A stretch of DNA of 64,000 nt from Escherichia coli (lineage in GTDB: Bacteria > Pseudomonadota > Gammaproteobacteria > Enterobacterales > Enterobacteriaceae), in the NCBI RefSeq assembly GCF_003334355.1, contig NZ_QOWP01000003.1, one strand, 5' to 3'. The translations under genes and the position numbers were made by a program. A model generated the notes under the pieces. It made no database searches, had not been told where the DNA came from, and saw only the letters and a program-made list of their open reading frames with translations. How positions within the stretch are numbered: position 1 is the first letter of the stretch; each line of letters opens with the position of its first letter. Shown piece after piece: positions 22,089 to 23,196 of the stretch.

Positions 22089-22395
22089 GCCTACCTCATC
22101 ATAGTTTTATTGTTCATATATACAAACAACGTTTTTAAATACAAACTAAAATGAGTATACCCAACCTTAGAAATGAGTCAAATTTAGCCAATCACAGAAG
22201 TGATACAGATAAGCTATTGATATATTTGGAGTAATTATGTCAGAGACCTGCATAAAAAACAATCGCAGTTCTTTTTTTATCCGTTTTATGACCAGTATCA
22301 CGCTAAAAAAGGACTGATGGGCTCAACAGCAGTCAAGGAACGCGAGGGGGTTAATTTACTTGAATTATAATTCTCCCTAGAATGGTGCATTACTC
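22089..22395. promoter_or_regulatory. Divergent promoter/operator region of the island (iclR-like gene versus lyase-transporter-dehydratase operon)
   Basis: 307 bp AT-rich intergenic region between divergently oriented genes; contains a 26-codon ORF with a GGAG Shine-Dalgarno at 22237-22317. Confidence 0.5.
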
Positions 22396-23196
22396 ATGGT
22401 AAGGGAAATAGTCATTATGGAACATAAGCCTACCATCCGGGTGTTAGAGATACTGGAAGCACTGGCAGCGGAGAATCAGGGTGTTTCATTAACTCACCTT
22501 TCGGAAAAAACAGGCATCCTGAAAGGAACGATTTTTCCCATCCTCAAAACGCTGGTTGAACAGCGGTACATCAGTTATGACGCTAATACCCAGCTTTATA
22601 ATCTGGGGATCTCCTGCTCGATTCTGTCCCGTGCTTTCCTCGACAGATCGTACTGGTTAAAAATGGTTTACAAAGAGATGAACAACATTGTCAAAGAGTG
22701 CAATGAAGTTTGTCAGATGGGGATCCTGGACGGTGCAGATGTTTTATATATCAATAAGGTGCAGGCGGCACAAACCGTACAACTGGTTTCACATATTGGG
22801 ACTCGTCTGCCTGCTATCTATTCTGCGCTGGGAAAAGCCATTATCTGTGAATACAGTGATCAACAAATTCGGCAACTCTACCCTGACGGTTTTGTTCCCA
22901 TGACATCGTATAGCGTTACGACCCTGGAACAATTGCGCCAACAACTTGAGGATGCCAGAGTAAATGGCTATGCATTTGATAACAGGGAAATCAATGAGGA
23001 GACGGTATGTTATGCTGTTGCCTTAAAACAGCGAAATAAAACGCTTGCCGCCATCAGCATTTCAATACCCGTATTTCGTGCGACAAAAGAAAAAATTGCC
23101 GATGTCACGCGTATCCTGCTGAATGCACGTTCGCGTATTGAACAGGAACTCAACACCTTACAGGATATCAATATCGGTATTGATTCCCACCATTAA
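22396..23196 (+). CDS. IclR-family transcriptional regulator
   Basis: 266 aa with an N-terminal winged HTH region and a C-terminal IclR effector domain. The true start may be the ATG at 22417 (MEHKPTIR…). Confidence 0.8.
   Translation: MVREIVIMEHKPTIRVLEILEALAAENQGVSLTHLSEKTGILKGTIFPILKTLVEQRYISYDANTQLYNLGISCSILSRAFLDRSYWLKMVYKEMNNIVKECNEVCQMGILDGADVLYINKVQAAQTVQLVSHIGTRLPAIYSALGKAIICEYSDQQIRQLYPDGFVPMTSYSVTTLEQLRQQLEDARVNGYAFDNREINEETVCYAVALKQRNKTLAAISISIPVFRATKEKIADVTRILLNARSRIEQELNTLQDINIGIDSHH

Follow-up and report, generated by a model that had tools for sequence, protein, structure and literature searches.

The 64-kb stretch of Escherichia coli DNA analysed here, referred to as the window, carries a sugar-acid island of four genes encoding a dehydratase, an MFS transporter, an aldolase and an IclR-family regulator (Table 1), all of which are present in the RefSeq annotation of the window. 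The island was found in about 519 of 5426 complete E. coli genomes (~10%) and its genes are at least 99% identical among E. coli carriers. The nearest solved structure to the aldolase is E. coli YagE (E 3e-48), and its matches to NCBIfam models fall below all cut-offs. The regulator is identical to the 259-aa protein cluster P0001, has the Pfam domains HTH_IclR (PF09339) and IclR_C (PF01614) and matches the IclR-family structures 1mkm, 2o99 and 1ysp; the NCBIfam IclR-family models match it below their equivalog cut-offs, the best of them, BhcR and KdgR, far below. The same four-gene module is present with iclR divergent in Morganella, Providencia and three metagenome contigs, and with iclR co-directional in Klebsiella species, Raoultella, Cedecea and Yersinia loci; the Serratia locus is short and shows, besides iclR, just the beginning of the aldolase gene. 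The island is a horizontally acquired and uncharacterised sugar-acid catabolic module, and our search of the literature for this gene set in E. coli turned up only analogues and nothing on the island itself.

The aldolase gene and iclR are divergent and separated by an AT-rich region (34% G+C) that measures 307 bp from the aldolase ATG at 22088 to the ATG at 22396 and 328 bp to the ATG at 22417. The first-pass annotation of this DNA had placed both promoters and the IclR operator in this gap, together with a 26-codon open reading frame (ORF) preceded by GGAG. The coordinates it gave for the gap, the two candidate regulator starts, the ORF and the GGAG all proved exact on re-reading the sequence. 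To find conserved elements we compared the window with 20 related loci (21 in all), calculating mean pairwise identity across nine divergent loci and taking the spacings between elements from ten. The strongly conserved blocks across genera were only promoter elements and the putative operator boxes, with spacer segments having a mean identity of 0.25-0.53. Within E. coli the SNPs cluster at 22202-22265 and spare the boxes, the core of the CRP-like site and the promoter hexamers. An Rfam scan of 21800-22700 at E values up to 1 returned one meaningless snoRNA match and no riboswitch or leader family.

Table 1. Genes and sequence elements of the island and its control region, in window coordinates
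Feature	Position	Strand	Remarks
Sugar-acid island, ~5.1 kb	about 18133-23266		E. coli chromosome, between yjfI and rlmB
UxaA/GarD-type dehydratase	18214-19815		operon, after MFS transporter
MFS transporter	19843-21144		operon, after aldolase gene
YagE-like 2-keto-3-deoxy-sugar-acid aldolase (DHDPS-family), 297 aa	21195-22088	-	first operon gene; ORF list, RefSeq
Aldolase Shine-Dalgarno GAGG	22094-22097	-	5 nt before ATG 22088; read from sequence
Box 1, GTTCATATATACAAAC	22112-22127		16-bp imperfect palindrome, putative IclR operator half; from conservation
Box 2, GTTTTTAAATACAAAC	22131-22146		second, more degenerate copy; 19 bp from Box 1
Predicted sigma-70 promoter of the aldolase operon, TTGACT-16-TATACT	22154-22181	-	-35 22181-22176, -10 22159-22154; consensus scan 10/12
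Conserved block ATTGAT(A/T)(T/A)A	22216-22224		between aldolase promoter and CRP-like site
26-codon ORF, peptide MSETCIKNNRSSFFIRFMTSITLKKD	22237 (ATG) to 22317 (TGA)	+	judged a chance ORF
CRP-like site, TATGACCAGTATCACG	22287-22302		8/10 to TGTGA-N6-TCACA; within the small ORF
Predicted iclR promoter, TTTACT-17-TAGAAT	22355-22383	+	-35 22355-22360, -10 22378-22383; consensus scan 9/12
Upstream in-frame ATG	22396-22398	+	probably unused as start
iclR Shine-Dalgarno-like AAGGG	22401-22405	+	upstream of ATG 22417
IclR-family regulator, 259 aa	22417-23196	+	preferred start ATG 22417

The two boxes share a motif, GTTCGTATATACAAAC, that to our knowledge matches none of the published IclR-family consensus sequences. 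The counterpart of Box 1 is perfectly palindromic in relatives, reading GTTTGTATATACAAAC in locus L021 and GTTCGCATATGCGAAC in Cedecea. Across the nine divergent loci, Box 1 with two flanking bases (22110-22127) has a mean pairwise identity of 0.91 with 13 of 18 columns invariant, and Box 2 an identity of 0.87 with 12 of 16 invariant. The pair occupies the same place, with the same 19-bp distance, in all 21 loci carrying the regulator and the operon. Searching the window for the box pattern at up to three mismatches recovered Box 1 and Box 2 only (0.42 matches expected), and a third box near the iclR promoter, which would have pointed to autoregulation, was not seen at this threshold. Among the ten divergent loci, nine have the boxes at 10-40 nt from the aldolase ATG; the exception is Rahnella, where they are 121 nt from the MFS start codon. 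That the gap holds the IclR operator, as had been proposed, is very likely given two palindromic boxes conserved across genera, and the boxes at 22112-22146, just upstream of the aldolase start, are the likely operator.

The predicted aldolase promoter contains a -35 block, GAGTCAAAT, with an identity of 0.83. In the ten divergent loci the distance between this block and Box 1 is fixed at 63-65 bp, and the co-directional loci in which the block was found have a similar one. The -10 hexamer of the promoter is only moderately conserved (0.64). A transcript start is predicted near 22147; counted from there, the two boxes would span roughly +1 to +35. When iclR lies elsewhere, the boxes, the -35 block and the CRP-like site remain upstream of the aldolase gene, except for the CRP-like site in Yersinia. 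The predicted iclR promoter has identities of 0.89 for its -35 block and 0.84 for its -10 block, the spacer is 17 bp in 10/10 divergent loci and the -10 element lies 33-36 nt from the start codon, with transcription predicted to begin at about 22389-22392. Counted by number, sigma-70-like matches in the region are not above shuffled sequence (2 vs 2.2). Both predicted promoters have their hexamers at 16-18 bp and are phylogenetically conserved with fixed spacing, in agreement with the proposal that the gap holds the two of them. We also considered a second, CRP-proximal promoter for the aldolase operon, the best candidate being TTGTTT-16-CATAAT on the minus strand (-10 22239-22234), and dropped it since its -10 is destroyed by a common E. 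coli allele (ATG>ACG in the small ORF, below) and is unconserved in Klebsiella.

Taken for this window alone, the E. coli CRP-like match is not above chance. Its T.TGA and CAC positions are invariant in nine loci and the match rises to 9/10 at the homologous place in Klebsiella, Raoultella, Cedecea, Serratia and Morganella. In Yersinia the CRP scan gave only 6-7/10 matches; a weaker CRP-like site was spotted there by eye near -70, a position that only Yersinia has. In the window the site is at about -148 from the predicted aldolase start and about -95 from the predicted iclR start and, judged against these predicted starts, falls outside the class I and class II positions (-41.5, -61.5, -71.5 etc.). 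The distance from its centre to the aldolase -35 block is 118-122 bp in the spacing comparison and 112-122 bp across several genera, with 119 bp in the E. coli group versus 113 bp in the Klebsiella group, a difference of about half a helical turn, and the distance from its centre to the iclR -35 is variable (59 to 77 bp). FNR was considered in place of CRP and rejected, as the Klebsiella version of the site, TGTGTGGGTAATCACA, misfits TTGAT-N4-ATCAA. The ATTGAT block has an identity of 0.68 inside unalignable flanks and reads ATTGATTAA in the Klebsiella group. It is IHF-like in E. coli and Providencia, and by comparison of consensus sequences only, the minus strand of 22210-22222, TATCAATAGCTTA, fits the IHF consensus WATCAANNNNTTR.

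The 26-codon ORF had been put forward as a leader peptide, a small protein or chance. Its GGAG (22228-22231) stands 5 nt before the ATG, and the region holds four ATG ORFs of at least 26 codons on its two strands. Among 5000 dinucleotide-preserving shuffles of the 328-bp region, 69% contained an ATG ORF of at least this length and 7.5% one with a GGAG, GAGG or AGGA core upstream. The ORF sits in the least conserved stretch of the region, with a mean identity across genera of 0.35 for codons 1-16 and 0.29 for the 3' end. The 3' half of the ORF runs over the CRP-like site. Nine related loci have no counterpart of its start, Shine-Dalgarno, frame or peptide, and a tblastn search of the collected loci with the 26-aa peptide returned the identical E. 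coli copy only. Even within E. coli the ORF is not maintained: of 11 alleles read base by base, seven have either lost the ATG or the frame. The start is changed to ACG (T22238C) in L026, L027, L029, L030 and L036, that is in 5/5 sampled alleles of the commonest E. coli haplotype, and L028 and L035 are frameshifted with a stop after 5-6 codons. For the other genomes alleles were deduced from identity bands with a 71-nt query: 254 of 517 fall in the 90-95% band that corresponds to the ACG haplotype and 37 lower, so that about 291/517 are in non-window bands and 226 (~44%) are of the window type. An inverted repeat (22266-22277 / 22305-22316) was evaluated as a terminator or attenuator stem and set aside, being composed of A and T only, flanking the CRP-like site and unconserved in relatives.

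Could the ORF nevertheless be a real, very young small protein or leader peptide confined to the window-type allele? This allele does keep an intact ATG with GGAG at 5 nt, ~226/517 carriers fall in its identity bands, and all four sampled examples (L031-L034) are intact, one with a single amino-acid change. Yet in other carriers the start or the frame is gone even though the island genes are at least 99% identical, and other genera have no counterpart. The consensus scan found no plus-strand promoter-like site upstream of the ORF and no terminator-like site downstream of it, and the ORF precedes the conserved iclR promoter and therefore falls outside the predicted iclR transcript. The CRP-like palindrome accounts for what conservation the ORF has, and the 7.5% chance expectation applies to this one region. 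We thus regard a young gene as highly improbable. Of the three original suggestions chance has held, and the leader peptide and small protein have not, the frame being unconserved in related islands, which the first-pass annotation had named among the observations that would refute them. On sequence grounds the ORF is an accident of the AT-rich spacer running across the CRP-like site and no real feature, even if it may be incidentally translated in the ~44% of carriers that have the ATG plus GGAG. A similar question arises for the regulator, for which two starts had been suggested, both indeed in the open frame. Initiation at 22396 would give a protein of 266 aa beginning MVREIVIM; no ATG precedes it in the open frame, it is retained in all sampled E. 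coli alleles and GGTG at 22384-22387, 8 nt upstream, could be a weak Shine-Dalgarno. The GGTG, however, overlaps or abuts the invariant -10 TAGAAT, and with this conserved -10 element the leader before ATG 22396 would be at most ~7 nt, the ATG following the predicted transcript start by 4-7 nt. The homologues begin with MEHKPT or MxxEHxPT: the nearest relatives, with 75-85% identical proteins, have no start codon at the 22396 position and begin at MEHKPT, and more distant relatives begin two codons earlier than MEHKPT. The upstream ATG has no counterpart in L021, L022, L023, Providencia and Morganella, and PGAP picks ATG 22417 in every E. coli record inspected. Homologue N-termini, the lack of the upstream ATG in the nearest relatives, RefSeq and the place of the promoter all make 22417 the most likely start and leave 22396 a poor candidate.

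The conservation of the elements, their spacings, the loss of the ORF elsewhere and the homologue N-termini are the observations on which a model of the region can be built, whose predicted parts are the protein that binds the boxes, the sense in which it regulates, its effector, the binding of CRP and the points where transcription begins. The sigma-70 promoter TTGACT-16-TATACT would read the aldolase-transporter-dehydratase operon from a start near 22147, and the 5' untranslated region of the operon would carry the two 16-bp palindromic boxes with their centres 19 bp apart. We infer that the boxes are the binding site of the divergently encoded IclR-family protein, which would probably sit there as a dimer of dimers and prevent transcription. 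Accumulation of the imported sugar acid, or more probably of its 2-keto-3-deoxy product, would lift the block. The conserved CRP-like site probably adds catabolite control of the operon, and iclR would be transcribed from its own conserved promoter TTTACT-17-TAGAAT and translated from ATG 22417.

A regulator that activates is suggested by YjhI, an IclR-type protein that is the activator of a similar E. coli aldolase-dehydratase operon (PMC13279387). The boxes could also be bound by a different factor, or could work as hairpins in the 5' untranslated RNA, palindromic DNA also yielding hairpins in RNA. Against activation, the boxes are placed downstream of the predicted -10 and ahead of the start codon, a position for a repressor and not for an activator, and their closeness to the aldolase ATG leaves no room for a promoter downstream of them and favours repression; moreover the closest organisational analogues with data, XynR and Campylobacter jejuni FucR, are both repressors. 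The co-occurrence of the boxes with iclR in every locus speaks against another factor, and the candidate hairpins would be short and made of A-U and G-U pairs. This group of readings appears improbable to us, and repression through the boxes remains our preferred reading. The T.TGA-N6-TCAC element might be, instead of a CRP site, a distal site for IclR or another regulator, or part of a second promoter, which would fit its distance of ~148 bp from the predicted start, its differing phase between groups, the chance-level E. coli match and the conserved ATTGAT block of unassigned role between the element and the promoter. The invariant positions are nonetheless exactly the CRP core positions, the Klebsiella, Serratia and Morganella versions match at 9/10 and the element is unlike the boxes. 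In addition, secondary carbon-source operons of enterobacteria are usually under CRP control. We consider the non-CRP reading unlikely, and retain CRP as the probable ligand. More speculatively, and with little confidence, the CRP-like site and the ATTGAT block could together provide a long-range, architecture-dependent activation from ~-148, combined with a previously undescribed IclR operator, in an uncharacterised sugar-acid pathway.

Taken together, our results point with good probability to a conventional back-to-back divergent IclR-type control region in which the small ORF is accidental. As far as can be read from DNA, the region is an ordinary, uncharacterised control region of the IclR/CRP type. 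The analysis disposes of a spurious lead towards a small protein or leader peptide, settles where the regulator probably starts and provides a map, with operator boxes, two promoters and a CRP-like site, for an accessory E. coli operon of unassigned substrate that is common to Klebsiella, Providencia, Morganella and Yersinia. A sensor for the 2-keto-3-deoxy acid of the pathway could also be made from the operator motif and the regulator, similar to the uses made of XynR and YjhI.

When compared with known systems, the 26-codon ORF resembles leader-peptide attenuators and E. coli small proteins only in its size and the Shine-Dalgarno-like GGAG. Its frame is not conserved, it is followed by neither a terminator nor alternative hairpins and has no promoter upstream, its start is lost in many strains and it lies outside the predicted transcript of the gene to be controlled. 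Classical IclR-family operators (IclR at aceBAK, AllR, KdgR and PcaR) are palindromes or pseudo-palindromes of ~15-17 bp, often paired, overlapping the promoter or lying downstream of it, to which the proteins bind as dimers or tetramers; the island regulator shares the HTH_IclR and IclR_C domain pair with this family. By gene set the C. jejuni L-fucose locus is also similar, with an IclR-type gene divergent from an operon whose first gene is of the DHDPS family and which also encodes a UxaA-type dehydratase and an MFS transporter. The C. jejuni operon has further genes that are absent from the island, for a dehydrogenase, a lactonase, FucP and an aldehyde dehydrogenase, and CRP-type catabolite control like this is not known from Campylobacter. 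FucR (Cj0480c) is a repressor encoded divergently from dapA-uxaA-MFS that binds the dapA promoter, although no operator sequence is given, and fucose itself fails to release it in vitro, so that its effector is presumably a pathway intermediate (PMC12566272).

The D-xylonate loci of E. coli K-12, XynR (YagI)/yagEFG and YjhI/yjhHG, resemble the island in having an IclR-family gene beside genes for a DHDPS-family aldolase, a sugar-acid dehydratase and a transporter, and like the island they are found on horizontally acquired DNA. They differ in the dehydratase, which belongs to the UxaA/GarD superfamily in the island and to IlvD/Edd in the K-12 loci, and the island regulator is no close relative of XynR or YjhI, for which no operator has been defined for comparison. 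XynR represses yagEF and has 2-keto-3-deoxy-xylonate as its effector (PMC13279387). A repressor relieved by a 2-keto-3-deoxy intermediate is what we propose for the island regulator as well.

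An alignment of nine divergent intergenic regions was used as a footprint of the gap between the aldolase gene and iclR (328 bp, 34% G+C). The conserved blocks are listed below with the other features of the region.

Features of the aldolase-iclR control region and its surroundings, with mean pairwise identity per aligned block
Feature	Coordinates	Identity
Box 1 (16 bp)	22112-22127 (measured with two flanking bases, 22110-22127)	0.91
Box 2 (16 bp)	22131-22146	0.87
GAGTCAAAT block with aldolase -35		0.83
ATTTACT, iclR -35		0.89
CCTAGAATRG, iclR -10	22378-22383 (invariant -10)	0.84
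CRP-like T.TGA-N6-TCAC	22287-22302	0.66, seven invariant columns
ATTGAT block	22216-22224	0.68
Everything else in the gap		0.25-0.53
Small ORF, ATG to TGA (+)	22237-22317	
Small ORF, codons 1-16		0.35
Small ORF, last codons		0.29
GGAG, 5 nt before the small ORF	22228-22231	
Perfect 12-bp palindrome GAATTATAATTC	22362-22373	
TATAAT within GAATTATAATTC	22366-22371	
iclR candidate ATGs (+)	22396; 22417	
Aldolase ORF, 297 aa (-)	21195-22088 (ATG at 22088)	
Island	18133-23266	

The first-pass annotation had expected this gap to hold both promoters and the IclR operator; its coordinates and sequences for the aldolase ATG, both regulator ATGs, the small ORF and the GGAG were exact upon re-reading the window. 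Both promoters are indeed predicted by a consensus scan independent of the alignment, as TTGACT-16-TATACT on the minus strand (aldolase) and TTTACT-17-TAGAAT on the plus strand (iclR), and the aldolase -35 and both iclR hexamers fall in conserved blocks. For the operator, the conserved paired boxes are present and their binding by IclR is putative. The boxes are palindromes with a spacing of exactly 19 bp, perfect in some relatives, and their pattern is found nowhere else in the 64-kb window (0.42 matches expected). Box 1 lies 63-65 bp from the aldolase -35 block in ten divergent loci and at a similar distance in those co-directional loci where the -35 block was found. The iclR promoter keeps a 17-bp spacer throughout, with 33-36 nt from -10 to start codon in the divergent loci. 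The E. coli spacer also carries the palindrome GAATTATAATTC, absent from relatives, whose perfect TATAAT has no matching -35.

A protein search gave IclR homologues with identities from 85% down to 41%, and a one-genome-per-species scan plus four contig look-ups yielded 20 usable loci. The four-gene module has a divergent iclR, as in E. coli, in Morganella, Providencia and three metagenome contigs, and an upstream, co-directional iclR in the Klebsiella species, Raoultella, Cedecea and Yersinia loci; the short Serratia locus shows iclR and the beginning of the aldolase gene only. In Rahnella ecdela (L002, 5585-6021) iclR is divergent but tblastn found no aldolase gene, and the sequence suggests that it was deleted; boxes, promoter blocks and CRP-like site are retained and now precede the MFS transporter gene by about 120 nt.

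In co-directional loci the boxes and -35 block still lie upstream of the aldolase gene, as does the ATTGATTAA block in the co-directional Klebsiella group; a stronger CRP-like site (TGTGTGGGTAATCACA, 9/10) occupies this side in the Klebsiella group and Serratia. These elements keep with the aldolase gene when iclR is co-directional, which assigns them to the operon rather than to iclR. The CRP-like site is 118-122 bp from the aldolase -35 and 59-77 bp from the iclR -35 in divergent loci. Taken alone the E. coli match is at chance level and its distance is odd, about -148 from the predicted aldolase start. Yersinia has weak matches only; in its loci L007, L008 and L010 the iclR-aldolase intergenic region is just about 157 bp, with the best match (TCGGAGCTACATCACA, 8/10) near -70, some 40 bp away from the -35 block. 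Such a distance is conventional for class I sites, in contrast to about -148 in other genera. A conserved ATTGAT(T/A) block (22210-22224) separates the aldolase promoter from the CRP-like site; here the E. coli minus strand reads TATCAATAGCTTA and fits the IHF consensus WATCAANNNNTTR; Providencia versions fit as well, Klebsiella versions do not. Klebsiella, Raoultella and Cedecea (L012-L018) have another conserved perfect palindrome, CTACAGAT-N8-ATCTGTAG, about 60-95 nt upstream of the co-directional iclR (for example in L016, about 5905-5940), unrelated to the boxes; judging by it, iclR may be under different control there.

The small ORF, encoding MSETCIKNNRSSFFIRFMTSITLKKD, had been proposed as a leader peptide or small protein, or as chance. 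None of the nine related regions has a counterpart start, Shine-Dalgarno, frame or peptide; ORFs over their CRP-like site differ in phase and length, and the only conserved bases within the frame are those of the CRP-like palindrome. Among eleven E. coli alleles read base by base, T22238C turns the ATG into ACG in five, an indel at 22240 brings a stop after 5-6 codons in two, and four keep the window-type ORF. Of 517 carrier genomes sorted with a 71-nt query, 226 had the window type, 254 fell in the ACG-haplotype band and 37 diverged further. Over 2.3 kb spanning both flanking genes the carriers are at least 99% identical; SNPs crowd into 22202-22265, sparing boxes, CRP-like core and promoter hexamers. 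This stretch is a hot spot for SNPs and indels, the commonest haplotype having 12 differences in 391 bp, and its two main haplotypes resemble separate alleles more than an accumulation of scattered changes. The ORF lies upstream of the conserved iclR promoter, outside its predicted transcript; the consensus scan found neither a promoter-like site ahead of the ORF nor a terminator-like one behind it, and Rfam gave no leader or riboswitch match in the region. Shuffling this one region yields an ATG ORF of at least 26 codons with a Shine-Dalgarno core in 7.5% of cases, in line with chance. Without counterparts, lost in seven of the eleven E. coli alleles, off the predicted transcript and expected by chance, the small ORF is no genuine feature of the region.

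Both proposed regulator starts are present, and the second, 22417, is very probably the one used. Nearest relatives begin MEHKPT, and Providencia, Morganella, Yersinia and Klebsiella MxxEHxPT; in the DNA alignment the nearest relatives carry a start codon (ATG or GTG) where E. coli has 22417 but none where it has 22396, with a purine-rich Shine-Dalgarno-like element (AAGGG, GAGAG, GGGAGG) upstream at the homologous place. The invariant -10 predicts a transcript start at about 22389-22392, which leaves ATG 22396 with almost no leader. PGAP placed the start at 22417 in every record inspected.

Database comparison assigns the window to the E. coli chromosome, with RefSeq giving, right to left, rlmB, an IclR-family regulator, a DHDPS-family protein, an MFS transporter and a UxaA-family hydrolase. 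Homology to island-free genomes breaks off near 18133, towards yjfI, and picks up again near 23267, towards rlmB, and the four genes are therefore a 5.1-kb insertion, found in about 519 of the 5426 complete E. coli genomes. Some carriers have an IS1 adjoining the island or within yjfI and lack yjfI-yjfL (e.g. 19SZHZ886Rt, ET745). One copy of the region is on a replicon classed as plasmid (NZ_CP128951.1, strain TUM2805), although this 655-kb record could be a piece of chromosome. Among solved structures the DHDPS-family protein has its best match in E. coli YagE (E 3e-48), which is a 2-keto-3-deoxy-sugar-acid aldolase. The dehydratase comes nearest to galactarate dehydratase, yet far under the equivalog cut-off, and the transporter is of D-galactonate-transporter type. 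The module looks like one for import, dehydration and aldol cleavage of a sugar acid. The C. jejuni L-fucose locus (cj0480c-cj0484) is headed by the same set as 18214-22088: IclR, DHDPS-family protein, UxaA-type dehydratase and MFS transporter. There, L-fuconate undergoes dehydration before its product is cleaved. Given the shared gene set, L-fuconate or D-arabinonate would be sensible first candidates for the substrate of the island.

Both boxes sit downstream of the predicted -10 and ahead of the start codon. Their distance to the ATG is 10-40 nt in nine of ten divergent loci; in Rahnella, the tenth, the MFS start is 121 nt away. From this geometry we infer that IclR would bind both boxes and, sitting between -10 and start codon, repress the operon; a pathway intermediate would lift repression, and CRP-cAMP would probably contribute catabolite control. 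The control region is an ordinary one of a known kind, previously uncharacterised. The nearest studied systems behave as proposed for the island's IclR: XynR is the repressor of yagEF, with 2-keto-3-deoxy-xylonate as the compound it senses, and FucR, the IclR-type repressor encoded divergently from dapA-uxaA-MFS in C. jejuni, binds at the promoter of dapA and is not freed by fucose as such, whereas the XynR paralogue YjhI differs in being an activator.
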